Below, in pieces: positions 12,412-42,586 of a stretch of 64,000 nucleotides of DNA. The first letter of the stretch is position 1; the number at the start of each line of letters is the position of its first letter. Location of the stretch: the NCBI GenBank assembly GCA_012841145.1, contig DUVH01000015.1, positions 37,237-101,236 of the forward strand, read 5' to 3'. The position numbers and the translations under genes were made by a program. Under the pieces are notes generated by a model. It saw only the letters and a program-made list of their open reading frames with translations. It was not told the DNA's origin and searched no databases. The stretch comes from Clostridiaceae bacterium. GTDB taxonomy: Bacteria; Bacillota; Clostridia; Saccharofermentanales; DTU023.

Positions 12412-12414
12412 AAC

Positions 12415-12972: not shown

Positions 12973-12979
12973 GATACTC

Positions 12980-22275: not shown

Positions 22276-22297
22276 CTACCAAATCAAATATTATTCA

Positions 22298-23929
22298 CTA
22301 TTTCTTAAAACTGTCGGGAATTTCATACAGACCGCCCGACCATTCGACGAGCTCATCAAGGGACTTAGCCGCGAGAAGGTCTTTTGTCGCGAGCGCCTGG
22401 TCAATGTCAAGATCGTCGGGGAGCGCGATTTTACCTGATTTCCTCAACTTTTCAATTACAGCCGGAGTCGCCATGTCACCGATCGGCGTCCCTTGCGCGA
22501 CAGCGCCCATCAGCGTCGTCCTCTCATCTTCGCTTTCAGCAAGATAGAGGTATGCGATCCCCTGCTCCGTCACGACGTGCGTTACATCTTCTCCGTAGAT
22601 CATGACAGGCGTGCTATCCAAACCTGCCTTCCTGCCGATCTCAACGGCATCAAGTTCGGGGACAAAATTGTTTCCGAACCGCCCGCTGCTTGACAACATC
22701 TGAACGATGAGTTTTCTTCCGCCTATCATGGAACGGCCCGGGTTCGGCATCATCGCTTTCCATGCCGGTGTCGAATGGCGTCGCCCTTGCGTGTTATGAC
22801 CCATGTTCGGAGCTCCTCCGAACCCCGACAGCCTGCCGCTCGTTACGGTCGAAGAGTTTGCAAGATAATCCATCTGCAGTGTCGCGCCTAAGAACAAATC
22901 GATACCGTATAATCCGGCCAACTGTGCGTATGCGCGGTTGGATCTTAGCGTTCCGTCATTTCCTGTAAAGAAGATATCGGAGCGAGCTTCCGTATACTTC
23001 TCCATCCCTTTTTCGCCGCCAAACGCGTAGATGCTCTCCACCCAGCCTCTTTCAATCGCCGGGATCATCATCGGATGAGGATTGAGAACCCAGTGACGGC
23101 AAATCTTTCCTTTCAAACCGAGGCTTTCACCGTACGTAGGGAGAATAAGTTCAATCGCAGCACCGTTATAGCCGATACCGTGATTGAGCGACATGACGCC
23201 GTGCTTGGCATAGATCCCCTTGATTGTCATCATCGCCATCAAAATATGTCTGTCGCGAATCTTCGCCGGATCTCTCGTGAAAAGCGCCTCCATCTGGTAC
23301 GGCTCATCCGATTGAACAACGATGTCAACCCAGTCTCCCGGGATATCGACACGCGGCAACGCGCCCTTACCGACAATCTCGTTGACTTGCACGATGACGA
23401 TACCGTCCTTAAACGCGGTCGCCTCGACGAGAATAGGCGTATCCTCCGTACTGTATCCGGTGAAAAGATTCCCGTCTTCATCGGCCATCTCCGCGGCGAC
23501 AAGACAGATATTGGGGATAAGGTCGACAAGCAGTCTCGCGTAAAGCTCGAGGTATGTGTGAATCGAACCTATCTTCAACTGATTGTCTTCAAGCATTTTT
23601 GCCAGTCGCACACTCTGCATGCCGGCAAACGCAAAATTGAGTTCATGCGCAATGCCTTTCTCGAAAAGGTCAAGATGCTCATCGCGCGATACGGCGGGGA
23701 TCATCATTGTGAGACCGTGCACAACAGCAGGGTCTACCGAAGCTAACGCCTGTGAAAGAAACGTCGCTTGCTTCTGGTTATCTCCTTCAAGCACTACTCG
23801 ATCGTTCGGACAGACAACTGCCTCCAGTACGGAGACAATATCTTCGGCTTGAACGATTTTCCCGCGCATCATATCCGAAGCGCGCTGCAGCCTTTGCTGC
23901 TTTCTAATCTTTTGCACATTCCATTCCAT
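22298..23929 (-). CDS. malonate decarboxylase alpha-subunit family protein (MdcA/MadA-like malonate:acetyl-thioester transferase)
   Basis: 543 aa. From my memory of MdcA it aligns along the whole length (LEGDNQKQATFLS, IHTYLELYARL, TEDTPILVEATAFKDGIVIVQVNEIV, LFTRDPAKI, KICRHWVLNPHP, GFGGAPNMG). First gene of the decarboxylase operon. Confidence 0.8.
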   Translation of the reverse strand: MEWNVQKIRKQQRLQRASDMMRGKIVQAEDIVSVLEAVVCPNDRVVLEGDNQKQATFLSQALASVDPAVVHGLTMMIPAVSRDEHLDLFEKGIAHELNFAFAGMQSVRLAKMLEDNQLKIGSIHTYLELYARLLVDLIPNICLVAAEMADEDGNLFTGYSTEDTPILVEATAFKDGIVIVQVNEIVGKGALPRVDIPGDWVDIVVQSDEPYQMEALFTRDPAKIRDRHILMAMMTIKGIYAKHGVMSLNHGIGYNGAAIELILPTYGESLGLKGKICRHWVLNPHPMMIPAIERGWVESIYAFGGEKGMEKYTEARSDIFFTGNDGTLRSNRAYAQLAGLYGIDLFLGATLQMDYLANSSTVTSGRLSGFGGAPNMGHNTQGRRHSTPAWKAMMPNPGRSMIGGRKLIVQMLSSSGRFGNNFVPELDAVEIGRKAGLDSTPVMIYGEDVTHVVTEQGIAYLYLAESEDERTTLMGAVAQGTPIGDMATPAVIEKLRKSGKIALPDDLDIDQALATKDLLAAKSLDELVEWSGGLYEIPDSFKK

Positions 23930-28540: not shown

Positions 28541-29995
28541 CTAGCCTGCCAAAATCGGATCTCTGGCAGCGGCAGTCTCGTCGGGTCTTGCGATCGGCGT
28601 ATAGCGCGGTGCGCCCTTCAAGAGTTCAGGATCTTCCTTCGCCTCCTCCGCGATCTTGATGAAAGCATCAGCGAGAGCGTCGAGGTCACGCCACGTCTCC
28701 GTTTCGGTCGGCTCGATCATGATCGCCTCCGCGACGACAAGCGGGAAGTACACGGTCGGCGGGTGGAATCCGTAATCGATCAGACGCTTGACGATGTCGA
28801 GCGTGTTGCAACCGCTTTCCTTCTTCTGCCACTCGCTTGTCATGACAAACTCATGCATGGATGGCGTGTCATACGGGATGTGGTAGTAATCCTTCAATCT
28901 CTCGCGGAGATAGGTGGAGTTCGCGACAGCGCCTTCCGAGACTTCGTAAAGACCTTCGGCACCGTTCGAGAGCATGTACGCATAAGTACGGACGAGAACG
29001 CCGAATGTACCGACAAAAGAACGGATCATGCCGAACGATTTCGGACGGTCAAAGTCGAGATAGTACATGTCGTCCTTTTTCGCGACGACAGGTCTCGGCA
29101 GATAGGGCTCCAACAGCTCGTTACAGCCGACAGGGCCGGCACCGGGACCGCCCCCGCCGTGAGGCGTCGAGAGAGTCTTATGAACGTTCCAGTGAACACA
29201 GTCGAATCCCATGTCACCGGGGCGGGCATGCATCATGATCGCGTTCATGTTCGCGCCGTCATAATAACAGAGTCCGCCGCAGTCGTGGATCATTCTCGTA
29301 ATCTTCTCGATGTTGCCGTCGTACAGGCCGAGCGTATTCGGGTTCGTCAGCATCAATCCGGCGACGTCATCACCGAGCGCCGCTTCCAATGATTCTAAAT
29401 CAACCGTACCGTACTCGTTCGATTTGACTTCGCGGACTTTATAACCAGCCATCGCCGCTGTCGCGGGATTCGTGCCGTGGGCAGCGTCGGGAACGATGAT
29501 CGTGTCGCGTTTCGTGTCGCCGCGATCTTCGTGGTACGCCTTGATCAGGAGGATACCTGCAAGTTCGCCGTGAGCGCCGGCCGCGGGTTGGAACGTATGG
29601 GCGGCCATACCGGTCACATCGTTCAGCATCTTTTCAAGGTGATAAAGCAGCTCGAGGTTGCCTTGAACCGTCTCATCCGGCTGCATGGGGTGTGTCGCCG
29701 CAAAGCCCGTTAAGGCGGACATATCCTCATTGACTTTCGGATTGTACTTCATCGTACATGAGCCGAGCGGATACGTGCCAACTTCGACGTGATAATTTTT
29801 CGATGAAAGATTCGTAAAGTGGCGCACAACGGAAATCTCGTCGACATCGGGGATGTTCGGTTTGCCTTCACGGTATGCATCACCGAACCACTCGGAAAAG
29901 TCAGGTTTCGGAACGTCCAAAGGACGAATGTACCGGCTTCCCTCGTTCGAAGTCGCAAGTTCAAAAATTAGTGGTGTTTCTTTATATCTTGACAT
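28541..29995 (-). CDS. gcvPB: glycine dehydrogenase (decarboxylating) subunit 2
   Basis: The ATG at 29995 (MSRYKETPLIFELA...) is 8-9 nt from GGGAGGG. Strong P-protein beta-subunit similarity throughout. Confidence 0.93.
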   Translation of the reverse strand: MSRYKETPLIFELATSNEGSRYIRPLDVPKPDFSEWFGDAYREGKPNIPDVDEISVVRHFTNLSSKNYHVEVGTYPLGSCTMKYNPKVNEDMSALTGFAATHPMQPDETVQGNLELLYHLEKMLNDVTGMAAHTFQPAAGAHGELAGILLIKAYHEDRGDTKRDTIIVPDAAHGTNPATAAMAGYKVREVKSNEYGTVDLESLEAALGDDVAGLMLTNPNTLGLYDGNIEKITRMIHDCGGLCYYDGANMNAIMMHARPGDMGFDCVHWNVHKTLSTPHGGGGPGAGPVGCNELLEPYLPRPVVAKKDDMYYLDFDRPKSFGMIRSFVGTFGVLVRTYAYMLSNGAEGLYEVSEGAVANSTYLRERLKDYYHIPYDTPSMHEFVMTSEWQKKESGCNTLDIVKRLIDYGFHPPTVYFPLVVAEAIMIEPTETETWRDLDALADAFIKIAEEAKEDPELLKGAPRYTPIARPDETAAARDPILAG

Positions 29996-30009
29996 AATCA
30001 TTTCCCTCC

Positions 30010-31347
30010 CTATGCATCGCAAAGACGAAGCATGGCCTCCGCAAAGCGGTCAAGCTGCTCTTTCGTCTTTTTCTCCGTCACGGCAATCAGCAACTTGTTG
30101 TCGTCGACGATGAGTCCGCCGATGATGCCTTCTTCGAGGAGCGCCTTGTTGAGCTTCTCGAGATCGACACCTTCTTTCGCCTCAATAAGGAATTCACGGA
30201 AGTATGGTTTGTCATAGACGAGTTTGAAGTGACCGTTTGCGGTCAGTTTCTTCTCAAGATAGATCGCCTTCGCCGCTGACTGTTCGGCAACGTCCAGCAA
30301 TCCCGATCCGCCTTGCAGCGCCAGCCAGATCGTGGCGGCAGTCGCAATCAGCGCCTGCGATGTGCAGATGTTCGATGTCGCGCGCTCACGGCGGATATGC
30401 TGCTCACGTGCTTGAATCGTAAGAACGTAACATGTTTTTCCATCGCGATCGACTGTCTGTCCGCAGATTCTTCCGGGCATCTTGCGCATCAACTTGTTTG
30501 TCACTGCCATATACCCGATACCGGGGCCGCCGTACGATGTCGGAATTCCGAGCGACTGGGCCTCACCGATAGCGATGTCGACACCGGCATCTCCGGGACG
30601 CTTCAACATCGCCAAACTGACGGGATCGGCGGAGACGACTGCCAGTGCGCCTACGGCGTGTGCTTTCTCAACCAGCAAATCGAGATCCTCGACAATACCG
30701 AAATAGTTCGGGCTCTGAATCATGAAACAGGCGAATTCCCTATTCGCATCGGGGTAAACAGTCTGTTGACCGTTTTCATCAATCTCACCGACGACGACTT
30801 CAATGTCTGCCGCGTGGCAATACGTCTGGACCGTTTCGAGTGTTTCAGGATGCATGCCGCCCGAAACGAACACTTTGTAACGGCGCTTGTCACGGCATGC
30901 GAGAAGCACGGCCTCGGCGGCGCCCGATGCGGCATCATAGAGCCCCGCGTTCGCGATAGGCATACCTGTCAGACGCGTAATGTAGCTTTGCCACTCGAAA
31001 TAAGCCTGAAGCGTACCCTGCGAGATTTCCGCCTGATAAGGCGTGTACGATGTCAGGAACTCGGATCTGTTGATAAGATGCTTAACGGCCGCCGGCTGGT
31101 AATGATCGTAATAACCGGCTCCGAGATAGCAGTCATATTTCGCTGTATTCAAGTTCTTGTCAGCTAACGCCTGAACGTGTTCGACGACTTCCATTTCCTT
31201 CATGCCTTTGTCAGCCAGCGCTTCATACTCTTCCACGCTGCACCTGTCACATTCAGGAATCATGTCAAACAGTTTATCGAGGTCGACGCCGACGGATGCA
31301 AGCATCCGGCGGCGTTCCTCACGGCTCATCGGAAGATAGCCGATCAT
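30010..31347 (-). CDS. gcvPA: glycine dehydrogenase (decarboxylating) subunit 1
   Basis: 445 aa (MIGYLPMSREERRRMLASVGV..., TSYTPYQAEISQGTLQ). Confidence 0.93.
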   Translation of the reverse strand: MIGYLPMSREERRRMLASVGVDLDKLFDMIPECDRCSVEEYEALADKGMKEMEVVEHVQALADKNLNTAKYDCYLGAGYYDHYQPAAVKHLINRSEFLTSYTPYQAEISQGTLQAYFEWQSYITRLTGMPIANAGLYDAASGAAEAVLLACRDKRRYKVFVSGGMHPETLETVQTYCHAADIEVVVGEIDENGQQTVYPDANREFACFMIQSPNYFGIVEDLDLLVEKAHAVGALAVVSADPVSLAMLKRPGDAGVDIAIGEAQSLGIPTSYGGPGIGYMAVTNKLMRKMPGRICGQTVDRDGKTCYVLTIQAREQHIRRERATSNICTSQALIATAATIWLALQGGSGLLDVAEQSAAKAIYLEKKLTANGHFKLVYDKPYFREFLIEAKEGVDLEKLNKALLEEGIIGGLIVDDNKLLIAVTEKKTKEQLDRFAEAMLRLCDA

Positions 31348-31349
31348 AA

Positions 31350-31712
31350 TTACTCCTCCTCACAGAATGCTTTGTATGCGTCTTCGTCGAGGAGTGCGTC
31401 GAGCTCGGCGGGATCCGCCATCTCGATCTTGACAAACCATGTGTCCCACGGTGCTTCGTTGATCAGTTCGGGTGCATCCTCGATCTCTTCGTTCGCTTCA
31501 ACGATTTCGCCGCTGATCGGTGCATAGAGATCCGATGCCGCCTTGACGGATTCCACGGTTCCGATGATGCCTTCGAGTTCAACAACAGTACCCTCCGGCT
31601 CGGCTTCCGCATATACGATCTCGCCCAATTGATCCTGTGCATAATCGGTCAATCCGATCGTTGCGATGTTTCCGTCAACTTTAATCCATTCATGTGTTTT
31701 GGCAAATTTCAT
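31350..31712 (-). CDS. gcvH: glycine cleavage system H protein
   Basis: The ATG at 31712 gives MKFAKTHEWIKVDG.... Lipoyl-lysine motif VESVKAASD is present. Confidence 0.93.
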   Translation of the reverse strand: MKFAKTHEWIKVDGNIATIGLTDYAQDQLGEIVYAEAEPEGTVVELEGIIGTVESVKAASDLYAPISGEIVEANEEIEDAPELINEAPWDTWFVKIEMADPAELDALLDEDAYKAFCEEE

Positions 31713-31834
31713 AATTCTGATTCCTTCCTGCATCTATTTCATTTGTATACCGGTTTCCGATACCGTCTCGAACCGGCTGTTTCATGGCACGAACATCAAA
31801 GAGCCGTGCCGAGATACCTGCTGTTCCGTGCCAA

Positions 31835-32944
31835 CTAGCCTACAAAAGGCGGTTTGACGACGGTGAAAGGCTGCATTTTCTTACGAACGAGCACTTCGAC
31901 GGCTTCAACTTCCGGCGTCTCAACATCTACTAGAGCAAACGCAATACCCTTCTCGAGCACGGGAGAGAACGTACCGGACGAAATAGCACCGATCTTTTTT
32001 CCGTCAAAATAGACTTCATAGCCTTCGCGCGGGATCACTTTCGTGTCGCTGACGAGCGCCAGTTGACGACGAGTGACTTTATCCTTCATCACGTCGCCTT
32101 GGAATTCGCGATCTTTATCGACGAAGAATCCCATACCGCCCTCCAGCGGACTGATCGTTGGCGACATCTCATGACCGTAAAGCGGCAACCCGGCCTCGAG
32201 GCGGAGCGTGTCGCGCGAACCGAGACCGCACGGCTCGATGCCGGCTTCCACGAAGATATCCCAGTAATAGCCTGTCTTATCGATGGGAATGTAGAGCTCA
32301 TAGCCGTTTTCACCCGTATAACCTGTACGCGAAATGATCATGGCGAGCTCTTCGCCTTCGACAGGAACCGTCATATCGCGGAAACGTCTGAGTCCTTCAA
32401 GCTGGGCACGCTGTTCTTCCGTCAGACCGAGTTTATCGGAAAGATCAAGAAGGACTGCGAGGCTCTCCGGTCCCTGAACAGCGATTTGACCGTAGAGATC
32501 TGATTCATCGATGATTTTGATGTCAGAAATATCGCGGTCGGGATACTTTTCCCCGTAGATCGGCAGACTGGTTTCGATATGGACGACGTCCTTATCCTTG
32601 TTAGCGGCATTAACGACGAGCAGATAATCTTCCTCACCTAAAGTGTAGACGAGAAGATCGTCGACCGTGCCTCCGTCAGCCGCACAAAGGATGGTGTATG
32701 TGATCTGATCAGGTTTTTTGCCTGTAACGCGACGCGTCATCAGCCAGTTGAGAAATTCTCCCGCACCTTGACCGCACACACGAACTTCACCCATATGCGA
32801 GACATCGAACATACCGACTTTGTTGCGGACGGCCAAGATTTCATTGCTGATGCCGGCATACTGCACAGGCATGTTCCAGCCCGCATACTCGACCATACGA
32901 GCGCCAAGATCGACATGGCGCTGATATAACGGTGTTTTCTTCAT
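31835..32944 (-). CDS. gcvT: aminomethyltransferase (glycine cleavage T protein)
   Basis: The ATG at 32944 follows GAGGAGG and gives MKKTPLYQRHVDLGARMVEYAGWNMPVQY. Confidence 0.93.
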   Translation of the reverse strand: MKKTPLYQRHVDLGARMVEYAGWNMPVQYAGISNEILAVRNKVGMFDVSHMGEVRVCGQGAGEFLNWLMTRRVTGKKPDQITYTILCAADGGTVDDLLVYTLGEEDYLLVVNAANKDKDVVHIETSLPIYGEKYPDRDISDIKIIDESDLYGQIAVQGPESLAVLLDLSDKLGLTEEQRAQLEGLRRFRDMTVPVEGEELAMIISRTGYTGENGYELYIPIDKTGYYWDIFVEAGIEPCGLGSRDTLRLEAGLPLYGHEMSPTISPLEGGMGFFVDKDREFQGDVMKDKVTRRQLALVSDTKVIPREGYEVYFDGKKIGAISSGTFSPVLEKGIAFALVDVETPEVEAVEVLVRKKMQPFTVVKPPFVG

Positions 32945-33084
32945 GTTTACCTCCTCTGAAAAATCAAGATTCATTTTGATTAGTTATCTACCTGTTATAT
33001 TAACATATGAGCACATGCATATGATACGCGGTATTACGATTAAACATGAAACTGCACATCGGACTTGAGCACAAAAGGCAGGGG

Positions 33085-33822
33085 TCATTCCCCGGAATAA
33101 TCAAGGCCGAATTTATGCTTGATGCGCGTGAGTTTTCTCGTCCACGAACCCAAAATCGGGACAAGGAAGATGACCGTGGCGAACGAATGTGCAAGATTGA
33201 AAAAGAAGCCAGACCCGTAAGCTGTGAGTGCCCCTTTCCATGTCAATGGCGATACAAAGCTGATAATATGCCAAGAATCCATGATCAGACCGAATAGGAG
33301 ACCCGATACGAAACCGTAGACATAGACAACCCAACGATTTCGAAACAAATCGCGGCTTTCCATAACGCCCGATAAGTAACCGATAAGCCCCCATGCGAAC
33401 ATCTGCCACGGCGTCCACGGTCCCTGTCCCATAAACATATTCGACGCGAGCGCCGTAAGCGCTCCCGTAAGATATCCGCTCCGTCTGCCGAAAGCGATCC
33501 CCGTCACGATCACGATGGCGGATACGGGCTTCACATGCGGGATGGGAGTGAAGAGAATTCTCCCGCCGGTTGCAAGAGCCGACATGACCACAATAGGAAG
33601 GATATGGCGCGGTTTCGGGCGTGATTTTTCAAAATTGATAAAGAACGGAATATTGGCGAGGATCGCTGCCAACAACGTCAAAAGAGCAGTCTGTTCGACC
33701 TCGTAATAGACGCAGAGGAACATAAGGATCGGTAAAGCGATCAGCGTAACCCTCTCGATGATCCTTCCCGTATCGATTGAACGTTTATCCGATGCCATCA
33801 CAAGGCTCCTCTTGAGCGACAT
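33085..33822 (-). CDS. ECF-transporter substrate-capture (S) component, substrate presumed corrinoid
   Basis: 245 aa, ~6 TM helices. Last gene of the riboswitch-led operon. Its start overlaps the ATPase gene (alternative ATG at 33798). Confidence 0.65.
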   Translation of the reverse strand: MSLKRSLVMASDKRSIDTGRIIERVTLIALPILMFLCVYYEVEQTALLTLLAAILANIPFFINFEKSRPKPRHILPIVVMSALATGGRILFTPIPHVKPVSAIVIVTGIAFGRRSGYLTGALTALASNMFMGQGPWTPWQMFAWGLIGYLSGVMESRDLFRNRWVVYVYGFVSGLLFGLIMDSWHIISFVSPLTWKGALTAYGSGFFFNLAHSFATVIFLVPILGSWTRKLTRIKHKFGLDYSGE

Positions 33823-35578
33823 TGAAAACTCGGTCGAATCCGCCTATCGCCACAACGGGATTCATGATTCCGCGCGTCACGCGAAAGGCATCGGTCGTGT
33901 AGAAAGCGTTATCTCGAAAAAACGATGATGTCTCATCTTTTGCCACGATACGTCCGTCAAAGATTAACGAACACTCGTCGGCGATATCTGCAGAAAATTC
34001 GAGATCGTGTGTGACAACGAGCAGCGTCATCGCTCGATCACGAAGGCGATTAAAGATCTCAGCGATCTCACGTTTATTCACGGCATCGAGTCCTTTGACA
34101 GGCTCATCGAGCAAAAGGACATCAGGCTCCAAGAGCAAAATCTTTGCGAGCGCACCCTTCTGCATCTCGCCTCCGCTCAAATCGTAGGGATGACGCTCTA
34201 AAAGATGGATCAGACCGAGACTGTCCGCGACGTCCAATACGCGTTGCTCATCATAGTTTCCTAGAGAACGATGTTCCATCAAATCGTCCATGAGTGTATC
34301 GCGAGCAAAGACTGCTTGAGGATTCTGCGTAAGGAGACTGACTTTGACATTAGGAGCGCGCACAATTTTGCCGTACTGCGCTCTCAAGACGCCCGCAAGA
34401 AGATAGAGCAACGTGCTCTTGCCGCTGCCGTTGCCTCCGACAAGCGCGTGAATCGTACCGCGGTAGAGTTCGAAATTCAAGTCCTCCAGAACAAACGGCG
34501 TTTCACTCCTGTAACGAAACGAGAGTCGCTTCACTTGAAGAAGAGGCTTTTCTCTTGATTTGCATTCCTGTAATCTGCTGACTGCGGCACAACAGTCCTC
34601 TGTGGTGCTAACGTGATGTTGTGATGATGTACGGCTATTAATTGCTATGTTCGTTTGACTGCCGCATTTTTCGCCGCCGCTACTTTCATCAGCACTTTTG
34701 GGAAACGACATACGGGACAACTGTACTCTCGCTTCCTGTACGGAGAGCGGAAGCGCGCAATTCTCGCTTTTCAGCGCTCCTTTCGATTCTTCAAGAGCTT
34801 GACGTGCTCTCCAAACAATCTGCGTTGCCGCGGGCAATGCGTATTTGAACGGCTTATCGCTCTCGAGAAGATGCAATGCAAAATCGTACGGTGTTCCGGA
34901 AAAGGAGATTCGTCCGTCCTCCAGATACAACACATCGCTCGCCATTGGGAGCACATCGCCCATCCTATGCTCCGACATAATGATCGTCGTGCCGATTTCA
35001 CGGTGAACGCGTTGCAACATGTTGAGAAGATGCTTGATCGCCACCGGATCGAGTTGAGCCGTCGGTTCATCGAGGATGAGAACGTGCGGGTGCATGATGA
35101 GAGCCGACGCAAGATTGAGAATCTGCTTCTCCCCTCCGGACAGCTCACTGACTTTCTTGTGGATCCAGTTCGATATTCCGAAGAAGTGCGCCGTCTCCGC
35201 GATGCGGCGCTCGATCAGTTCAGGCGACAGCCCGCTATTCTCAAGCCCGAAAGCCAACTCATGCCAGACGACATCCATGACGATCTGGTTTGTCGGGTTC
35301 TGCATGACAAAAGCAATATCGAGAAAAGAATGATGTCCCGATGAACCGTGCGGAACATCGCCATTGAAATGAATGGTGCCTTCTCTTTCTCCGTGCGGCG
35401 CAAGCTCAGGCTTTAGACATCGCAAGAGTGTCGTCTTTCCGCTCCCGCTCGGACCCGCGACAACAGTAAAAGAGCCGGGCGCGACAGAGAAAGAGACACC
35501 GTCAACGGCTTTCTTGTCACTTCCGGGATAGCGGAAACTGAAGTCCTTAATCACGATGCCGCCCGATCCGATCATCAT
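33785..35578 (-). CDS. fused ECF-transporter ATPase (EcfA-EcfA' duplicated ABC ATPase)
   Basis: 597 aa. Two Walker A sites (GPSGSGKTT, GGNGSGKST) and two signature motifs (LSGGEKQ, LSGGEMQ), joined by an S/T-rich linker. Confidence 0.9.
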   Translation of the reverse strand: MMIGSGGIVIKDFSFRYPGSDKKAVDGVSFSVAPGSFTVVAGPSGSGKTTLLRCLKPELAPHGEREGTIHFNGDVPHGSSGHHSFLDIAFVMQNPTNQIVMDVVWHELAFGLENSGLSPELIERRIAETAHFFGISNWIHKKVSELSGGEKQILNLASALIMHPHVLILDEPTAQLDPVAIKHLLNMLQRVHREIGTTIIMSEHRMGDVLPMASDVLYLEDGRISFSGTPYDFALHLLESDKPFKYALPAATQIVWRARQALEESKGALKSENCALPLSVQEARVQLSRMSFPKSADESSGGEKCGSQTNIAINSRTSSQHHVSTTEDCCAAVSRLQECKSREKPLLQVKRLSFRYRSETPFVLEDLNFELYRGTIHALVGGNGSGKSTLLYLLAGVLRAQYGKIVRAPNVKVSLLTQNPQAVFARDTLMDDLMEHRSLGNYDEQRVLDVADSLGLIHLLERHPYDLSGGEMQKGALAKILLLEPDVLLLDEPVKGLDAVNKREIAEIFNRLRDRAMTLLVVTHDLEFSADIADECSLIFDGRIVAKDETSSFFRDNAFYTTDAFRVTRGIMNPVVAIGGFDRVFNVAQEEPCDGIG

Positions 35579-36579
35579 GAATTATCCCTCTTTCTCTCAT
35601 CGATCACGACGCATGAAGCCAACCTCCACCGCCCGGCATCGTGACGGCGCGGCAGCATCGCCGCGACATACGGACTGATCTCATCTGATGAACGATGGCG
35701 CCTGAGACATAGCTCATCACGAAACCATTCACCTAAATCCAGCAGGAGCGGAAGCGCCCCCAACGTTGCGAAAGCACATACGAGGACGTAAAGGCGTCCG
35801 CCTTGCAGAGCGCGTGAGGGAACGTACCACTCAGGATAAAAGAGAAAAGCCGCCCCCCCCATGGCGATACCGACGACAGCCAAACAGGTCAGTAGAACAG
35901 TCAGCAAAACAGGCAACACATCGCGCTGCATCCAACGGACGCGCGCATAAGGTCGGCGAAGTCCCGACTGGTAACCTTTTGCTCTCATCGCGTCGGCCGT
36001 CTCTATGGCGTTTTCCATACTCCATGCCATGAGAATCGAAGCGAGACGAACCGCACGCGTTACCTTCGCTTTTCGTTGTCGATCATCTGAACCGAGCAGA
36101 GCCCGCTGACTCATATCGATCTCCCGTCCGTGTCGAATCGTATCGGGGATATAACGAAAAATCATCGATACCATCATGCTGATCACTGGCAATCGTTTCC
36201 CCAGCATCGCAAGAAAGCGACCGTTATCCATCAAGTCACTGTAACAGGAAAACCAAAACAGCACTGAAAGAAGTGTCAGCCCTGAGATAAATCCGTAAAG
36301 TAATGCTTCCAAGGAGAATGACCTTCGACCGATCGTAAACAGCACCGTCATGCCGCGATCATTCGCTACGGCATTGAAACAAGTGATAAACACAAGCATC
36401 GGCAGGATGTAGAGCAGCGATTTCAATGTTTTGACAACACCCGTCAAGCGCCATCTCATAAAAACTGCGAAAAGAAACGAAATGCCCGCGATCACAGGGT
36501 GGCGAACAAGCATCGTCACCAACAGCACGGCGGCAAAATAAAGGAAGATGACTGTAGGATGATAGCGTTTCAGGGCCAA
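35575..36579 (-). CDS. ECF-transporter transmembrane (T) component (EcfT/CbiQ family)
   Basis: 334 aa polytopic protein (YHPTVIFLYFAAVLLV...). 4-nt overlap with the ATPase gene. Confidence 0.8.
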   Translation of the reverse strand: MALKRYHPTVIFLYFAAVLLVTMLVRHPVIAGISFLFAVFMRWRLTGVVKTLKSLLYILPMLVFITCFNAVANDRGMTVLFTIGRRSFSLEALLYGFISGLTLLSVLFWFSCYSDLMDNGRFLAMLGKRLPVISMMVSMIFRYIPDTIRHGREIDMSQRALLGSDDRQRKAKVTRAVRLASILMAWSMENAIETADAMRAKGYQSGLRRPYARVRWMQRDVLPVLLTVLLTCLAVVGIAMGGAAFLFYPEWYVPSRALQGGRLYVLVCAFATLGALPLLLDLGEWFRDELCLRRHRSSDEISPYVAAMLPRRHDAGRWRLASCVVIDERKRDNS

Positions 36580-36611
36580 CGGTCTTCGAACTCCCTTTCT
36601 GAGGCTTGACG

Positions 36612-37427
36612 TTACTTGACGTCACCTTTCTCAATCGTGTACCCCCAGTGTACGACATCGCCGTCATTCAGAATACATTGACCGGCACCTTTCATCACAA
36701 AGACGCCGTTGACGAGATAGACCCATCCGCTGTAAGATCCGCCCTCTTTTTCAGCGAGTCCTCCGATCGCCACAATATAACCGGGATTGAATGCGCTGAC
36801 CTTAACATCCAAGGGAAGCGAAAGCAAGGCATCGTACACAGTCGTATCGCGTGGAAACGAAGCTGTCTTTTTGAGCATATGACCGTCGGCCGAGCATAGA
36901 TTTTTCTCAATCATATAATCGATCTTATCCTCAAGACCGGAAAACTCTTTTTTGCGAAGAACGGCGTTGCGGCACTCGACGACAAACGTAACGGTGATCT
37001 TATCTGATACAGTTGTCGGCGGCGGCGTTGTCGACCGACTAGTCGACGTCGTTACCGTCGTGACGCGACGCGTCGTTTTGGTGACACGGCTTGTTGTCGT
37101 CTTGGCAGTACGGCTTGCAGGCGACTGTGTTGTCGTACCGGACGTCGACGTACCGGATGAAGTCTCCTCTGTCGCCGTACTCTCAGCCGGCAGCTCGCTA
37201 TCAGTCAGCTTATCTGATGCGCCGTATAAAACAGGTGTACTGGAGGAAGTGTCGGAAGGCGAATCTGACGTGCTCAACGTCGGTTCGGCGAGACTGCTTG
37301 TCGCAGGATCCACGCTCTCGATCACAGGCGGCGCACACGCGACGCAGCTTATGACCAGCAGACAGGCCAGAACTAAGACGACCCGCCGAAGCGTGGTTTC
37401 AGTTTTTTGCTTGCTGTACTTCAACAT
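36612..37427 (-). CDS. lipoprotein with S/T-rich linker and C-terminal DUF4430 (transcobalamin-like beta) domain
   Basis: 271 aa. Signal peptide with Cys lipobox (LLVISCVAC), ~120 aa S/T/P-rich linker, then a DUF4430-like domain (ITVTFVVE...GWVYLVNGVFVMKGAGQCILNDGDVVHWGY). Confidence 0.7.
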   Translation of the reverse strand: MLKYSKQKTETTLRRVVLVLACLLVISCVACAPPVIESVDPATSSLAEPTLSTSDSPSDTSSSTPVLYGASDKLTDSELPAESTATEETSSGTSTSGTTTQSPASRTAKTTTSRVTKTTRRVTTVTTSTSRSTTPPPTTVSDKITVTFVVECRNAVLRKKEFSGLEDKIDYMIEKNLCSADGHMLKKTASFPRDTTVYDALLSLPLDVKVSAFNPGYIVAIGGLAEKEGGSYSGWVYLVNGVFVMKGAGQCILNDGDVVHWGYTIEKGDVK

Positions 37428-37539
37428 CTCTATTATTTACCGCGATGCATGGCAAGATAGCCGCAAGGCCTGCGCGCGTCCGGCATGAAAGCCGGACGAG
37501 GCGCAAGCCTGTCACACAGTTAATAGCGGTTATAAACTA

Positions 37540-39759
37540 TTACTCGTCGGAAACCGTCGAATGTCTCCTCTTGCGTGCCGCGCATACGAACCCTGCTGAG
37601 AGGGCAACAAACAACAGCCCTGCAAACACGAGTTCTCGCGTCTCGCCCGTCGGCGGTATGCCGTCCAGCGCCGGCTCCTTCGCCTCCGCTTTTTTCACGC
37701 TCATTTGGATCGCGAAGATATGCCCGCTGTCGTTCGTATAATAGATCGTCCCCTTCCCGTCTGTTACAGGACTGGCCGTGCAATAATTCCGCTGATCTTG
37801 AACAGGTTCGTGCGCCATCTTGACGTCTTTGCCGTCGTAGACATAAAGCGCGCCCGGTTCATTATTCGCCGTAAAGAAGGTGAACGGATTACCTGTAGCG
37901 CCCGCGATCACAAGCGGCGCCGATTTCACATCTCCGACAACGTCGTATTGAAAGTCGATCGCCATGGTCGCAAGATCGATCACGGCGAATACGCCTTTGC
38001 CCTCTTTAGCGCCTCCGACGTAGGCTTTCCCTCGATAGATGGTCGGCGTCGACGTCGACACTTGACCGATCTTAACACTTCTGAGCTTGCCGAAACTGCC
38101 GTCCTCTTTGTTGAAAGTTATCTCGTGGAACTTGCCGTCACGCGAGGTAAAGTAGAGTTTTCCGTCGGCGTGAACGATCGTCGAGCGGATCGGCCCACCG
38201 ATGTTCACGGTGTTTTTAGCAACTACAGGTTGCGCGAGTGTATCAATCGCCTCGAGACCGCCGCCGTCATTTCCGATGACAAGCCATTTTCCGATCTTCA
38301 CGGGACCTGCCCAGTAATAGCCTGCAGCTGAGTTTTGATATTGCCACAGCGTTTTGCCCGTCGCCATGTCGATTGCCCGGATAATCCCGCCTAGAGCGGC
38401 ACCCTCCTTGTCAACGGCCGTCGTCGTAGAATAAGCAACTTCATCGGCGATAAGAAGCGTCGCAAGGCTTTGAATGCCGTGATTGGTAGGTTGCCATGCC
38501 TCATCATAGATTGTTATCAGGTCTTGCGCCTCGGCGACCCACTTTGTCTTCATCGTCTTCGCGTCGACCGCCTGAACGGCGCCGCCGTCAAGAGGAACAA
38601 CGACGAGTCCGTAATCGTAGGCAAGTCGACCGAAATAGCCGATGGTGTTGCGGAGCGTCTCTTTCGCGATGACATCGCCATTCCCGTTCAGCTTGAACAA
38701 TTCATTACCAGCCGCGAAGTAGAGATTGCCGCCGATAATCAGAAAGTCGGACTTCGTGGCGTAATAGTCACCCCATTCAAATTTAATCTTTTCCCCGTAC
38801 GTATTACTCCAAAGAAGCTTAAAATTACTCTCCAGCGTGCCTTCAACGTTCTTGGCGGCGTTGTGGAGACTGCCCGATCCGAAGCTCGTCCAATAATCGG
38901 GGGTCATTATTAAAGCGAGCGGTGAATCGGGCGTCTCCTGCGCGATACTGAGCGGATATCTCGGATCGTTGACAAACTTCCACTCGATCACGTCATCGGC
39001 CACGGGAATCGTTTCATCCATTCCCTTTTCTGCGCTTTTGCCGTTGATCAGCAGATACCAATAAGAGTTTTGCCCGTTGGTGACGCCTCCGGTGTTCGTC
39101 TTGCCTTCCACGGTAATCTCGTTAAGGAAAGACCCCCAATCAGAGGAAAAAATGACGACCGATCTGTTATTTGCCTGATCGTCGAGCAACTGTTTTGTAA
39201 TGTCGGCAACCGTCTTGCCGCTTTCGATCTCGACCTTCTCGCTCAACCACGGCCCGCCATCGTACGCCGTCTCTTGGTCGCCTTTCGTTTCGAGAATCTT
39301 GGAACCTGTCACGGTGAACGTCACCGTAATCGTCTCCTTAACGCTCTCAGCGGGAAGTGCTGCTAAACCGCCCTCTTCAGTCGCGACTTCCTCCGAAGAG
39401 TCCGCGGGCTTCTCCCCTTCCGAGGTGTTGGCGCCTCCCTGTTCAGCTTCCGTCGCAACTCCCTTAGTAGAGTCTGCGGGCTGCTCCCCGCCCGAGGCAT
39501 TGGCGCCTCCCTCTTCAGCTTCTGTCACAGGGTCTTGCCCGCTGCTCGGAGCTTGCGACTCCGCATTCGGATCGCCAGCCGTTTCTCCTCCGGACTCAGA
39601 CGCTTCCCCTCCCGTCGAGCCCTCGCCGCTTCCCGTTTCCGTCGCAACCGTCTCGCCGCCTTGCGCTGACGCATACGTTGTCGGCATGACGAACGGCGCA
39701 ATTGACACCATGAGCGCCACAATCACTAAGATGGCGCCCCATCTTTTCAGTTCCTTCAT
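37540..39759 (-). CDS. cell-wall-anchored surface protein: acidic tandem repeats + DUF4430 domain + PQQ/BamB-like beta-propeller + [LI]PxTG sorting signal
   Basis: The ATG at 39759 is 8 nt after GGAGG (the track ORF starts at an upstream TTG, 39774). The protein has a signal peptide, a DUF4430-like segment (ITVTFTVTG...YWYLLINGKSAEKGMDETIPVADDVIEWKF), repeated beta-propeller-like blades, and a C-terminus IPPTGE + hydrophobic helix + ARKRRH. Confidence 0.75.
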   Translation of the reverse strand: MKELKRWGAILVIVALMVSIAPFVMPTTYASAQGGETVATETGSGEGSTGGEASESGGETAGDPNAESQAPSSGQDPVTEAEEGGANASGGEQPADSTKGVATEAEQGGANTSEGEKPADSSEEVATEEGGLAALPAESVKETITVTFTVTGSKILETKGDQETAYDGGPWLSEKVEIESGKTVADITKQLLDDQANNRSVVIFSSDWGSFLNEITVEGKTNTGGVTNGQNSYWYLLINGKSAEKGMDETIPVADDVIEWKFVNDPRYPLSIAQETPDSPLALIMTPDYWTSFGSGSLHNAAKNVEGTLESNFKLLWSNTYGEKIKFEWGDYYATKSDFLIIGGNLYFAAGNELFKLNGNGDVIAKETLRNTIGYFGRLAYDYGLVVVPLDGGAVQAVDAKTMKTKWVAEAQDLITIYDEAWQPTNHGIQSLATLLIADEVAYSTTTAVDKEGAALGGIIRAIDMATGKTLWQYQNSAAGYYWAGPVKIGKWLVIGNDGGGLEAIDTLAQPVVAKNTVNIGGPIRSTIVHADGKLYFTSRDGKFHEITFNKEDGSFGKLRSVKIGQVSTSTPTIYRGKAYVGGAKEGKGVFAVIDLATMAIDFQYDVVGDVKSAPLVIAGATGNPFTFFTANNEPGALYVYDGKDVKMAHEPVQDQRNYCTASPVTDGKGTIYYTNDSGHIFAIQMSVKKAEAKEPALDGIPPTGETRELVFAGLLFVALSAGFVCAARKRRHSTVSDE
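39367..39525 (-). repeat. 72-bp coding tandem repeat (~2.2 copies) in the surface protein N-terminal region
   Basis: Peptide units are TEAEEGGANASGGEQPADSTKGVA / TEAEQGGANTSEGEKPADSSEEVA / TEEGG. The DNA units are visibly near-identical (GAGG(T/C)(G/A)TTGGCGCCTCCCT(G/C)TTCAGCTTC). Confidence 0.85.
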
Positions 39760-39825
39760 CGATAAAACCTCCAATTCCTCTTGTCGATGGACCTGGGGTT
39801 TTGCTCGTTTCGGGATGCGTCGCCA

Positions 39826-39874
39826 TAAAAAGAACCGCGCGTCCGTCTCACAGTCGGAACGCGCGGTCCGTTTT
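39826..39874 (-). terminator. second terminator-like hairpin in the operon leader
   Basis: Perfect 9-bp GC-rich stem: ACCGCGCGT (39834-39842) / ACGCGCGGT (39859-39867). Flanked by an A-run and a T-run (bidirectional-looking). Lies between the riboswitch terminator and the RBS. Confidence 0.5.
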
Positions 39875-39889
39875 CACACCATACGCATC

Positions 39890-39928
39890 AAAAAACCCGT
39901 AACGCACAATAACCCGTTGCACTGTTAC
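39890..39928 (-). terminator. riboswitch expression-platform terminator
   Basis: Minus-strand GTAACAGTGCAA-cgggtta-TTGTGCGTTAC (one bulge, G-U pairs), followed by GGGTTTTTT. Confidence 0.6.
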
Positions 39929-39930
39929 TC

Positions 39931-40093
39931 TACTGCGCTCGGCAGGTCTTCTGGCTCATGAGGCGAAGCTGTGACTTCCGTTTTTTCCGCCTTCCCAATT
40001 TCTCAGTGGCTGACCTAGTCAGGAAAAAACACTCATTTACAGCGGCGGTACCGCACAGGTTTTTCACCTGTTTCCCTTCGCTCGAACGCACTA
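39931..40093 (-). promoter_or_regulatory. cobalamin (B12) riboswitch aptamer
   Basis: Minus-strand read contains AGGGAAACAGGTGAAAAACCTGTGCGGTACCGCCGCTGTAA and the B12 box GAGCCAGAAGACCTGCC. It is closed by a P1-like pairing TAGTGCG/CGCAGTA (one mismatch) and lies upstream of the surface-protein/ECF operon. Confidence 0.85.
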
Positions 40094-40218
40094 TTCATTT
40101 ATACATTGATCATAGAATAGAATCGTCTCTGAAGTCAAACAATAGAGAGCAAACTCCCCTGCATCCTGTCTTTATTTTCCGGCATCTTCGTTATGTATCT
40201 CGCGCGATTCCGTATCAG

Positions 40219-41799
40219 TTACCACTCGGGACATCTGTACACACCGATGAGAATCGGCGTATTGTACTTTCCCTCTGTCAAACAGAAGATAAACGGACGA
40301 TCAAAAACAGCCTCCAGCGACATCCGGTCGACGGCATCGAGACCGTGCGCGTCGGGTTCATGGACTGAACCGTCAATCGAGAACTCAATGACTTGATCGA
40401 TCACAGGAAAGGATACGCCTTCGCCGTCTAACCACTGCAGATTTACGGGCATCTTAATAAACTCGCACAACTCCTCTACACATGAAGAGCCGACGAGATT
40501 GTGCCTGTCGGCGATTTTGAACATAGGGAATCGAGCGACGGCGTTCTCACCAGCCGGATCTGCCGTCAGAAGTCTCGTAAAGAAATGATCCTGCCTCAGC
40601 AGATCATCGGGTGTCAAATCTTCATCGGGTAAAACAAGATAGATATTGCCGCCCTCAACAGGCAATTCACATGCGACCGCGCCGTCGAGCTGAAAATGCC
40701 TGAGCGACGCATCATCGGAATCGTAAAATGACAAATCTGTTAATGTTCCGCGAGATGTATGGAACACTCCCTCGCTGAGGTTAACATCCGCCAGACTGCG
40801 TTTCGACATGGCATCGATGTTACACCGGAACGTAAGCAGCAGTTCATTCCCGGGATTCCAGCGGGCGGAATCAACTGACTGAGAAAACACAACAGGCACA
40901 GGATCATCCGGCTCGCTTTCCAACGTATAGACATCGAATAAATATCTTTTACACAGTGATCCCAACAACGTCCGGTCACACTTCTCATACAAGTCTGCGC
41001 CCATCAACAATGAGTTTTGCGCATCGAATTCATCTATTGAGAAATGGTATGGAAAAGAGCTCGCATCAAACTCATCTTCATCGGGCACATCTATATCCCA
41101 GCGATCAAGCAATGCAAGCCGATCGCTATCGACGCTGTCAGCAAGGAAAGCGAACATCTGGTACAGATTAAGGGGTGAGTACACGGCATTTACCTCGCCA
41201 CCGGAGAGAACTTGACAGGCAGATTGATCGGCCAAGCGCGCGATCTCTCGCGACACGGCAGATGCGCTTTCATCACCTGTCGTCGTTGTCGGTTTCATTG
41301 GAGGCATTTCGATCGACTCGATGGCTTTAACGGGCTTATCACTATCTAAAAGGAGGAGGTAATCGTTTTGAGCTACGACTCCCTCGAGTGAATCAAAGTC
41401 GTGCGAGTCAGACTTTTGCCCCGGGGCGTTCTGCATTTCGAATTTTGCGGAGGCGTCTTCCGGCGCCCTCGCACCCTGCGTGGCATTCAAAACGAAGAGG
41501 ATGCCGAAGACGACGACGAGACACGCCGCGATACTCGCCACGGAAATTAAGACCTTGCGATTCGACCAGCCCTTGCGTTTGTTTCGCACGTTCATGTTGC
41601 GGCGATCGTCGGACGCAGCTTGAAGGACAGTTTGATTTCGCTCGACTTCGACAGCGGAACTAGCGTCAATACGGCGAAGAGGCATCCTGATGACGTTCTT
41701 CCTCTTTGCAGGCTCGACGTCGAGCAGCAAGTCGTCATCAATCGACGAAAGACTTTGCATCAATCGATTTAACATCTCTTGCTCATCACTCATAGCCAT
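40219..41799 (-). CDS. single-pass membrane protein with extracytoplasmic serpin-fold domain; putative anti-sigma factor by synteny
   Basis: 526 aa. About 95 aa cytoplasmic N-terminus, a TM helix (VLISVASIAACLVVVFGILFVL), then a serpin-like domain. Serpin landmarks: NAVYSPLNLYQMFAFLA, ACELPVEGGNIYLVLPDE, VARFPMFKI, and the C-terminal FDRPFIFCLTEGKYNTPILIGVYRCPEW (compare the serpin F-x-a-D-r-P-F-l-F...G-r-v-x-x-P). Its start overlaps the sigma gene by 14 nt. Confidence 0.7.
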   Translation of the reverse strand: MAMSDEQEMLNRLMQSLSSIDDDLLLDVEPAKRKNVIRMPLRRIDASSAVEVERNQTVLQAASDDRRNMNVRNKRKGWSNRKVLISVASIAACLVVVFGILFVLNATQGARAPEDASAKFEMQNAPGQKSDSHDFDSLEGVVAQNDYLLLLDSDKPVKAIESIEMPPMKPTTTTGDESASAVSREIARLADQSACQVLSGGEVNAVYSPLNLYQMFAFLADSVDSDRLALLDRWDIDVPDEDEFDASSFPYHFSIDEFDAQNSLLMGADLYEKCDRTLLGSLCKRYLFDVYTLESEPDDPVPVVFSQSVDSARWNPGNELLLTFRCNIDAMSKRSLADVNLSEGVFHTSRGTLTDLSFYDSDDASLRHFQLDGAVACELPVEGGNIYLVLPDEDLTPDDLLRQDHFFTRLLTADPAGENAVARFPMFKIADRHNLVGSSCVEELCEFIKMPVNLQWLDGEGVSFPVIDQVIEFSIDGSVHEPDAHGLDAVDRMSLEAVFDRPFIFCLTEGKYNTPILIGVYRCPEW

Positions 41800-42364
41800 A
41801 CCCCTTTCTTATGAACTTATCCTTCAACTCGGCTCTCATCCTAAACATCAATGATTTGACGGCGCCTTCCGTCATTCCGTGCTCTTCCGCAATCTCGCGC
41901 ACACCCGAGGCGTAGAAATAGCGTTGGATGAAAATGGTTCTACGCAGTTTCGTTTGAGAGCGGAGATACTCGCTGATTACCTCCGCCATCTCGGCATTCT
42001 CCAACAGCCGAACCGTGTCCGCCTCGGATGCGATGCATTCACTTAACTCGTCCAGCAAAAGATTAATCTTTCCGCCTCCGCGTTTACTTCTCGTCTTCTC
42101 TTTTACACGATCGAGCGCATTGTTGCGGGCTATCTTGCACAAATACGCTTTTAAATACTCAGGGCGCTCAGGAGGAATCGAATTCCAAGCGGCCAAGTAC
42201 GTATCGTTTACGCACTCCTCAACATCTTCGCGATTCCCGAGAATGTTCCATGCCAAACTGCGCAACAGAACACCGTATTTATCCATCGACGACATGATCG
42301 CTTCTTCTGAGCGCTCAAAGTAGAGTTCGATAATCGCTTCATCTGTCAGGTGGCCCGATACCAT
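41786..42364 (-). CDS. ECF-type sigma-70 family RNA polymerase sigma factor
   Basis: The track ORF extends to 42406; the ATG at 42364 (MVSGHLTDEAIIELYF...) is the more typical N-terminus. Region 2 (DVEECVNDTYLAAW) and a region 4 HTH (GVREIAEEHGMTEGAVKSLMFRMR) are present. Confidence 0.8.
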   Translation of the reverse strand: MVSGHLTDEAIIELYFERSEEAIMSSMDKYGVLLRSLAWNILGNREDVEECVNDTYLAAWNSIPPERPEYLKAYLCKIARNNALDRVKEKTRSKRGGGKINLLLDELSECIASEADTVRLLENAEMAEVISEYLRSQTKLRRTIFIQRYFYASGVREIAEEHGMTEGAVKSLMFRMRAELKDKFIRKGYGYE

Positions 42365-42586
42365 GCCCTGCGCGGATCTCTCTTTCCGATAATAAGTTGA
42401 CCGCAAGCCGTCTCACAGCCGGCGACAGTCATCTCTCTATCGGAAATTGTATCACGCGCCACATCAATATTTCCTTTCACTGCATAAGACGACAAAAATG
42501 ATCTGCGGTTACGCATAAAGTGCTTAAACACGAACTCTTCTCGGATTCTCATCGATACTTGTTCAATTTGACGAGACTTTTTCCGC

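Follow-up and report, generated by a model that had tools for sequence, protein, structure and literature searches.

Most gut and digester bacteria need B12-type cofactors yet cannot make them, and the capture of these compounds at the cell surface has been worked out for Bacteroides, which bear an outer membrane. Here, we present the analysis of a five-gene operon on the minus strand of a contig from a Clostridiaceae bacterium (GenBank assembly GCA_012841145.1, contig DUVH01000015.1), located in a stretch of 64,000 nt (positions 37,237 to 101,236 of the contig) that is called the window in the following. The operon is headed by a cobalamin riboswitch and encodes a surface protein combining a DUF4430 domain with a beta-propeller, a lipoprotein with a second DUF4430 domain, and a dedicated energy-coupling factor (ECF) transporter with a CbrT-like S-component. 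It is very probably a B12-repressed corrinoid-scavenging system of a monoderm Clostridia bacterium, while the specific relay order from the wall protein to the lipoprotein and on to the transporter stands closer to an even chance. An earlier note, made from the sequence alone, had claimed a B12-riboswitch-led corrinoid-acquisition operon at this place, which is supported here by the Rfam family RF00174, by both DUF4430 proteins and by the CbrT-like ECF transporter.

Systems of this kind have been predicted before. Based on gene context, Burroughs, Balaji, Iyer and Aravind proposed in 2007 that transcobalamin-like SLBB proteins serve to scavenge B12 in hosts that do not synthesise it (PMC1796856). 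These proteins have signal peptides and anchors of the Gram-positive type, include a fusion with a beta-propeller, and share their operons with a second SLBB paralogue and CbiO/CbiQ-like genes. Signal peptide, anchor, SLBB (DUF4430) domain, propeller fusion, second SLBB paralogue, CbiO/CbiQ-like genes and the proposed B12 scavenging are all shared with the window operon, and their example of a propeller fusion, a Clostridium protein (gi 28210494), may belong to the propeller family of the window. Because this architecture was described in 2007, the locus is a new member of a predicted kind: the finding is real and its function well assigned, but the type of system is not new. The remark of the earlier note that the architecture was not recognised as characterised therefore stands as far as experiments are concerned, since no experimental characterisation was found in the literature, and falls with respect to prediction. 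The only experimental study of such proteins found by the literature search was a report on heme in L. sakei, and a review of September 2026 describes the capture of cobamides outside the cell in Gram-positive Firmicutes as “entirely uncharacterized” (PMC13616437). Four points are new with respect to 2007: the operon is under a riboswitch, its S-component is CbrT-like, the propellers form a large and coherent family with near-obligate DUF4430 pairing, and the binders show a characteristic pattern of divergence; the 2007 text contains neither the word riboswitch nor a CbrT-like S-component and treats the propeller as a probable tether. The window locus and its relatives provide clonable candidates under one B12 switch, namely a wall-anchored DUF4430-propeller protein, a leashed DUF4430 lipoprotein and a dedicated CbrT-like ECF importer, and make the acknowledged gap in Gram-positive B12 capture directly testable.

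Leader RNA and operon structure

The leader of 400 nt (39745..40145; minus strand, as are all features of the operon) consists of promoter, aptamer, two hairpins, spacer and ribosome-binding site. In a covariance scan with Rfam, the aptamer at 40101..39924 covered the whole RF00174 model (positions 1-189) with 79 bits (E 8e-18), the gathering score of this family being 31.5 bits. The alignment is not truncated, and the B12 box GAGCCAGAAGACCUGCC agrees with the RF00174 consensus, so that the riboswitch is present in full length. All riboswitch strings quoted in the earlier note (AGGGAA, GGTGAAAAACC and GAGCCAGAAGACCTGCC) were located in the sequence, and its assignment of a B12 riboswitch to the head of the operon is confirmed by the Rfam score. 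Located 8 nt 5' of the aptamer, a promoter-like site (TTGACT-18-TATGAT, 40109..40138) was recognised by its match to the consensus at 10 of 12 positions. It is kept in an alignment of four leaders, those of the window and of the related loci L001, L007 and L008 (8590-9015), which have a mean nucleotide column identity of 89%.

Two terminator-like elements follow the aptamer according to folding. Hairpin 1 (39890..39928), with the subsequent GGGUUUUUU, is invariant across the four related leaders and is a candidate for the regulated terminator. The long hairpin 2 (39815..39888) has a GC-rich core at 39869..39832 and is followed by UUCUUUUUAU; it carries an A-run on its 5' side and a U-run on its 3' side, and in the leader alignment it is retained in L001, L007 and L008, with changes from G-C to G-U. 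For the region 3' of the aptamer with both U-run hairpins, a minimum free energy of -48.4 kcal/mol was calculated (z -3.5).

Five minus-strand genes follow the riboswitch with successive gaps of 112, 32, -4 and -38 nt. Between genes 1 and 2, a strong GC-rich hairpin without a U-run is located at 37466..37510 (z -4.15 over a region of 131 nt). It could serve in processing or stability, or else act as a partial attenuator that sets the product ratio. A further terminator-like hairpin lies at the end of the last gene (33079..33094) and marks the 3' end of the operon. Every element that had been listed for the five-gene operon was recovered with Pfam, NCBIfam and the sequence itself, essentially where it had been placed.

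The two DUF4430 proteins and the ECF transporter

Gene 1 (37540..39759) encodes the surface protein of 739 aa, and its ATG is preceded by a GGAGG ribosome-binding site. The protein begins with a signal peptide (aa 1-32) ending in ...TYASA, continues with an acidic, disordered region (aa 33-140), a DUF4430 domain (aa 141-265) and the propeller (aa 300-690), and closes with a sorting signal (aa 701-739). Residues 31-140, which have a high content of G, E, A and S, carry a net charge of -22 and include two EAE[EQ]GGAN repeats. The DUF4430 domain (PF14478; 38965..39339) was found by Pfam with 28.9 bits against a cutoff of 23.8, and the eight-bladed beta-propeller (37690..38862) by PQQ_2 matches with 42.5 bits against a cutoff of 27.6 as well as by the fold model. 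In this model, the predicted local distance difference test score (pLDDT) is about 70-95 over most of DUF4430 and propeller and about 80-90 for DUF4430 itself, and the acidic N-terminal region is disordered. The sorting signal (37543..37659; IPPTGETRELVFAGLLFVALSAGFVCAARKRRH) has the tripartite organisation of xPxTG-type signals, with IPPTG, a hydrophobic helix and the basic tail ARKRRH, and xPxTG variants also occur in the relatives. Judged from this signal, the protein is presumably cleaved by sortase at IPPTG and linked to peptidoglycan.

The product of gene 2 (36612..37427) is a putative lipoprotein of 271 aa. In its N-terminus MLKYSKQKTETTLRRVVLVLACLLVISC, the residues VISC at positions 25-28 fit the lipobox [LVI][ASTVI][GAS]C as judged by eye, and the protein is thus predicted to be lipid-anchored through Cys28. 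The S/T/P-rich linker that follows (aa 29-140, about 110 residues) consists of 27% T and 21% S and leads to the DUF4430 domain (aa 141-271), which Pfam recognised with 54.8 bits (PF14478, E 1.3e-14, cutoff 23.8). An AlphaFold model of this C-terminal domain reached a pLDDT of 92.6; it was built from a domain alignment of 10 rows, comprising the window protein and earlier matches, and the search of a protein collection had given 16 candidates and 3 hits. When this domain was used for a fold search with Foldseek, the top 19 matches in the PDB were beta domains of transcobalamin, haptocorrin or intrinsic factor, or the R. gnavus structural-genomics protein 3U7Z (E 2e-5 to 1e-3). The lipoprotein found no PDB match by sequence at E<=10, and its link to transcobalamin consequently rests on Pfam and fold.

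The earlier assertion that DUF4430 has the fold of the transcobalamin beta domain is therefore well founded for the lipoprotein, and the presence of two extracytoplasmic DUF4430 proteins, one wall-anchored and one lipid-anchored, is likewise supported, both domains exceeding the Pfam cutoff and the anchors being read from the sequence. The beta-grasp fold is common to the window domain and the mammalian carriers transcobalamin, haptocorrin and intrinsic factor (2BB5, 4KKI, 2PMV, 5NP4), with a target-normalised TM-score of about 0.68 for the isolated beta domain. In contrast to these carriers, to which the sequence identity is 11-17%, the window system has no alpha/alpha-toroid partner and shows the propeller in the neighbouring position. 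Transcobalamin contacts cobalamin mostly through backbone atoms (Burroughs et al. 2007, PMC1796856), and for this reason sequence cannot decide whether DUF4430 binds cobalamin.

Genes 3 to 5 encode the transporter. EcfT, the transmembrane coupling subunit of the CbiQ family (35575..36579), matches PF02361 with E 6e-10. The fused EcfA-EcfA' ATPase (33785..35578) contains ABC_tran twice and is recognised by ECF_ATPase_1 and ECF_ATPase_2 with E of about 1e-88, and the S-component of 245 aa (33085..33822) by PF07155 and PF12822. EcfT, two EcfA domains and the S-component are encoded together with overlaps of 4 and 38 nt, as in a dedicated (group I) ECF module. Compared with PDB chains, the S-component matched 6FNP chain A, the CbrT of L. 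delbrueckii, with E 3.4e-8 (residues 74-237 to 12-175 of 182, 164 aligned). The other matches among the ten listed at E<=10 had E values of 0.29 or worse, and neither RibU nor another S-component was among these ten. The dedicated ECF transporter of the earlier note is hence corroborated by the CbiQ, the double ABC_tran/ECF ATPase and the S-component models, and its S-component is CbrT-like by homology to 6FNP. The prediction of CbrT reportedly came from Rodionov et al. 2009.

The S-component does not have the compact size of about 180 aa known from CbrT (182 aa). It carries about 60 extra N-terminal residues (33640..33822) with two predicted hydrophobic helices, an extension common to the S-components of related operons (233-261 aa). 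Because of this greater length, it is assigned to a CbrT-like subfamily and not called an orthologue; a docking site for the lipoprotein on the extension is a speculation. Two other identities were considered and dismissed. A riboflavin S-component, suggested by PF07155 as best Pfam match, was rejected on account of the riboswitch class and of CbrT as the only solved relative. Likewise, a CbiMNQO cobalt transporter, suggested by the names CbiQ and CbiO, was discarded since neither CbiM nor CbiN was found in the five genes and the S-component resembles CbrT.

ECF-CbrT of L. delbrueckii (6FNP) transports cobalamin and cobinamide with nanomolar affinity, is neither inhibited by hemin nor subject to competition from it, and works without accessory proteins (PMC5997447). 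Both systems are ECF-type importers with homologous S-components, EcfT and two ATPase domains. They differ in that the L. delbrueckii module is shared among S-components, whereas the window module is dedicated, encoded in the same operon and has EcfA and EcfA' fused. Only the window system possesses the S-component extension and two extracytoplasmic DUF4430 proteins. Furthermore, the window operon is riboswitch-controlled, while the eLife paper mentions no riboswitch for cbrT (PMC5997447).

Related loci and the propeller family

The five window proteins were compared with all open reading frames (ORFs) of 31 related loci, and 19 loci were scanned for riboswitches. Close relatives stem from metagenome-assembled genomes (MAGs) of anaerobic-digester Clostridia, distant ones from Oscillospiraceae, Christensenellales, Bittarella, Proteocatella, Collinsella and other Coriobacteriia. 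All or almost all parts of the module, namely a propeller protein, a small DUF4430 protein, EcfT, EcfAA' and a CbrT-like S-component, are encoded in L001, L003, L007, L008, L009, L013, L015, L022, L025, L028, L030 and L031; in L024, a CbrT-like S-component is fused to the ATPase ORF just 5' of two large DUF4430 surface proteins. Altogether, the module is conserved in 13 related loci of several orders in Clostridia and Coriobacteriia. Of the 19 loci scanned, 13 have a cobalamin-class riboswitch above the Rfam gathering score immediately 5' of the genes and in the same orientation (window, L001, L003, L007, L008, L009, L013, L015 with AdoCbl-II, L022, L023, L024, L028 and L030), and the association of gene module and riboswitch is far beyond chance. 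Two Collinsella loci (L002 8826-8942; L012 8217-8333) have a sub-threshold AdoCbl-II match, 31.1 against 36.5 bits, directly upstream of the propeller-DUF4430 gene. The Collinsella loci, which lack adjacent ECF genes, keep the propeller protein and a second DUF4430 protein.

The architecture of the surface proteins varies between these loci. The riboswitch of L009 and L013 is followed by a gene for signal peptide, propeller and transmembrane (TM) anchor only, and DUF4430 is encoded separately by the gene after it. Elsewhere, the propeller is part of proteins of 1000-2400 aa with one or more DUF4430 and cadherin-like or immunoglobulin (Ig)-like domains, and a prenyltransferase-type toroid occurs once, in the surface protein of L028. 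S-layer homology (SLH), choline-binding, sortase-type and TM anchors are found among the large propeller proteins. In the SLH-anchored variant L003 (1-2043), a divergent ECF operon runs on into cobT (DBI_PRT), cobU and cobS, which are nucleotide-loop salvage genes, and this linkage is in keeping with a system that imports incomplete corrinoids and completes them intracellularly. Two further arrangements were observed. In several operons, the ATPase and S-component genes stand between two EcfT genes, and in two loci S-component and ATPase form one ORF (L003, L028, L030, L031; L022 14752-17550; L024 101-1447). In L020 (11489-12032 and 17134-17211), two cobalamin riboswitches lie on opposite strands just downstream of the propeller gene, with a NiCo riboswitch further along, and no riboswitch was found upstream of the DUF4430 and propeller genes of this locus.

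L001, L007 and L008 are syntenic with the window, with genes for an ECF-type (extracytoplasmic function) sigma factor and a 526-aa protein upstream and gcvT downstream. Identities to the window proteins in these three loci amount to 91-95% for GcvT, 82-83% for the sigma factor, 78-83% for the S-component, 72-77% for EcfT and 70-72% for EcfAA'. The surface protein reaches 62% in L007 and 44-45% in L001 and L008, the lipoprotein 57% in L007 and 35-37% in L001 and L008. The two binder genes (window 36612..39759) vary jointly and behave like a cassette of two types, whereas transporter and flanks are conserved; the upstream 526-aa protein is likewise only 50-53% identical. Both cassette types occur within one MAG bin, to which L006 (1-3267; 3.3 kb) and L008 (8883-12674) belong. 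The first 220 nt of L006 are shared with L008 at 99.5%, no nucleotide similarity exists over both binder genes, and from the 3'-terminal part of the lipoprotein gene onwards into EcfT the identity is again 85%. L006 represents either a paralogous copy of the operon or a cassette variant that exists in the population. The divergence of the binders may be due to different preferences for cobamides, to pressure on an exposed receptor, or to no more than a weaker constraint on extracellular proteins.

For the propeller, an exhaustive phmmer search with this domain only over 1.84 billion cluster representatives yielded 274 proteins (clusters) at E<=1e-30 and 1114 at E<=1e-10, and most of the 150 best matches cover the whole domain. 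At least one DUF4430 domain was detected by a custom hidden Markov model in 104 of these 150, and in 97 of the 106 with at least 650 aa. In a sample of every third of the 150, Pfam reported DUF4430 in 24 of 47 members and the alpha/alpha toroid (Prenyltrans) in none of the 47. Further surface modules in the family are aBig_2, Flg_new, cadherin-like, SLH and choline-binding domains. The propeller thus constitutes a family of its own, with a DUF4430 fusion in most cases and a linkage to riboswitches, and it is a testable candidate for a corrinoid-handling module. Its members are named “PQQ-binding-like beta-propeller repeat protein”, “hypothetical protein” and once “outer membrane protein assembly factor BamB” in the databases, none of these names being related to B12, and the label “BamB” is misleading for Gram-positive relatives.

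The surface-protein model superposes best on eight-bladed propellers, namely the alcohol dehydrogenases dependent on pyrroloquinoline quinone (PQQ) or lanthanide, tetrathionate hydrolase, BamB and YxaL, with target-normalised TM-scores of 0.7-0.79 for BamB and YxaL and sequence identities of 11-16%. The sequence displays A-x-D-x-x-T-G-x-x-x-W repeats of the tryptophan-docking type. In spite of the shared fold, the window propeller differs from those of BamB, YxaL and PQQ dehydrogenases in being part of a Gram-positive surface protein, in its DUF4430 fusion and in its B12 riboswitch. There was no match to a full-length quinoprotein enzyme, as NCBIfam PQQ_membr_DH gave 14 bits against a cutoff of 833 and only PQQ_2 repeats matched. 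Conserved polar and aromatic residues precede the innermost strand A of successive blades (Q430, Y482-W483, R525-S526, S568..T571-P572, Y673-Y674..N676-D677-S678), a position that would place them around the central funnel.

According to the earlier note, both known capture folds, that of transcobalamin and the propeller of BtuG, were fused in one polypeptide. This claim had to be abandoned. BtuG2 is seven-bladed, the window propeller is of the eight-bladed PQQ/BamB/YxaL type without detectable sequence similarity to it, and a profile of 21 family members retrieved only PQQ-like propellers from the PDB, with BtuG chains absent even at E<=10. On these grounds the propeller is considered unrelated to BtuG, and convergence would have to account for any similarity in function. 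The parallels to the Bacteroides BtuG/BtuB system with BtuH and BtuJ comprise binders encoded together with the transporter, a beta-propeller in the outermost position, the concept of a relay in several steps and negative charge near the capture module (PMC6143338, PMC10404256, PMC13616437). In contrast, BtuG2 is a lipoprotein capping the TonB-dependent BtuB of the outer membrane (PMC10404256), whereas the window propeller is C-terminally wall-anchored, and in the host cell the context of outer membrane and BtuB is missing and the transporter is of the ECF type.

Proposed mechanism and alternative explanations

The following course of events would be in line with the features described. Plentiful adenosylcobalamin would bind to the leader aptamer and transcription would stop at the downstream hairpin with its U-run, an OFF logic that is deduced from the riboswitch class. 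When B12 is scarce, the five genes would be co-transcribed. The exported, sortase-linked product of gene 1 would then display its acidic tail, DUF4430 domain and propeller and catch corrinoids at the surface of the wall. The DUF4430 domain of the lipoprotein, on a flexible S/T-rich leash of ~110 residues that may be long enough to span the wall, would bring the corrinoid to the membrane, where the CbrT-like S-component would bind it and the dedicated EcfT/EcfA-A' would drive its import. By analogy to ECF-CbrT of L. delbrueckii, the substrates are probably cobalamin, other cobamides and cobinamide. We infer the two-tier relay of wall and membrane from the anatomy of the operon, with which it is compatible.

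Several observations weigh against such a corrinoid relay. The sorting motif is IPPTG and not LPXTG, the surface protein matches neither Gram_pos_anchor nor an LPXTG model in Pfam and NCBIfam, and the sortase active-site motif [TS]LxTC was not found in window ORFs of at least 120 aa; a cognate sortase could be encoded elsewhere in the genome. The similarity between S-component and CbrT is modest (E 3e-8), with ~60 aa of extra N-terminal segment. The hairpin between genes 1 and 2 could uncouple the expression of both genes, and the wall-protein and lipoprotein binders may each act alone rather than by hand-over. In addition, a related ECF operon with transcobalamin-like proteins in L. sakei was reported for heme uptake (bioRxiv 10.1101/864751). 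This operon, lsa1836-1840, resembles that of the window in encoding an ECF transporter together with extracellular transcobalamin-like proteins in a Gram-positive organism, and differs from it by separate alpha-toroid-like and beta-like proteins, the lack of a propeller, the assignment to heme and the lack of a reported riboswitch. That the window operon imports heme or another tetrapyrrole in place of corrinoids appears barely conceivable. Phenotypes related to heme are reported for L. sakei, and heme was docked into modelled transcobalamin-like proteins, but the study does not mention a riboswitch (bioRxiv 10.1101/864751), and a cobalamin-class riboswitch above the gathering score heads the window operon and 12 related loci. 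Moreover, the S-component is CbrT-like, hemin is no competitor of B12 in ECF-CbrT (PMC5997447), and the module is joined to cobT, cobU and cobS in L003. The surface proteins might also sequester or hoard corrinoids, be it from competitors or as envelope storage, with ECF-CbrT-like uptake proceeding without them. This we consider unlikely, since binders and transporter are strictly co-operonic in 13 related loci, the long lipoprotein leash puts DUF4430 between wall and membrane, and surface binders of Bacteroides, by analogy, feed BtuB. Hoarding would agree with the activity of L. delbrueckii ECF-CbrT without accessory proteins, with the Collinsella loci retaining both binders without adjacent ECF genes, and with the much faster divergence of the binders than of the transporter, which argues against tight co-evolving contacts.

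The role of the propeller within a corrinoid-scavenging system has to be weighed separately. We tentatively suggest that the eight-bladed propeller, with an origin separate from that of BtuG, itself binds or otherwise handles corrinoids and partners DUF4430, in the same polypeptide or operon, instead of the alpha/alpha toroid of transcobalamin, so that its family would be the principal means by which many Clostridia and Coriobacteriia capture B12 outside the cell; as a whole, this proposal is possible and rather doubtful. A sizeable chance, still short of an even one, is given to the propeller being a structural or wall-binding module only, such as a spacer or a binder of peptidoglycan or polysaccharide, which makes no ligand contact and leaves the corrinoids to the transporter and DUF4430. 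Tethers were the role proposed for fused extracellular domains by Burroughs et al. 2007 (PMC1796856), the scaffold proteins BamB and YxaL, which carry no cofactors, are among the closest folds, and many other surface modules also occur on members of the family. On the other hand, another anchor would be redundant because dedicated ones (sortase signal, SLH, choline-binding repeats, TM helix) are already there, the propeller forms a distinct family bound to DUF4430 at the frequencies given above, the first riboswitch-led gene of L009 and L013 encodes a propeller with signal peptide and TM anchor only, and the conserved residues before strand A would lie at the central funnel. It is highly unlikely that the propeller is an extracellular enzyme on the scaffold of PQQ dehydrogenases or tetrathionate hydrolase that strips corrinoids from foreign carrier proteins or remodels them: these enzymes are among the best folds and Pfam PQQ_2 matches, but the repeats are generic, PQQ_membr_DH stays far below its cutoff, no catalytic motif was identified, and BamB and YxaL fit equally well. 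If the propeller does handle corrinoids, the fast joint divergence of the binders would reflect cobamide preferences or arms-race pressure on an exposed receptor. Gram-positive and Gram-negative bacteria would then each have recruited a propeller for B12 capture, independently of one another, and the database names “PQQ-binding-like” and “BamB” of the relatives would be corrected by this result.

Several neighbouring genes in the window were recorded in addition. Immediately 5' of the riboswitch, at 40219..42406 (minus strand), the sigma factor gene and the overlapping gene of the 526-aa protein are located. The latter has no Pfam match, its homologue in L001 shows only a faint serpin match in a precomputed Pfam list, and it may be an anti-sigma factor or a surface protein. 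Two groups of genes at 6820..15394 and 20713..23929 encode a PucR-family regulator, AllH-like and CoA-ligase-type proteins and a molybdopterin xanthine-dehydrogenase-type subunit, which may constitute a cluster for purine or ureide catabolism, and also a malonate decarboxylase alpha subunit adjoining a carboxyl transferase. Directly downstream of the operon, at 28541..32974 (minus strand), lies the glycine cleavage operon with gcvT, gcvH, gcvPA and gcvPB, for which no glycine riboswitch was found at the Rfam threshold and which occupies the same place in L001, L007, L008 and L009.

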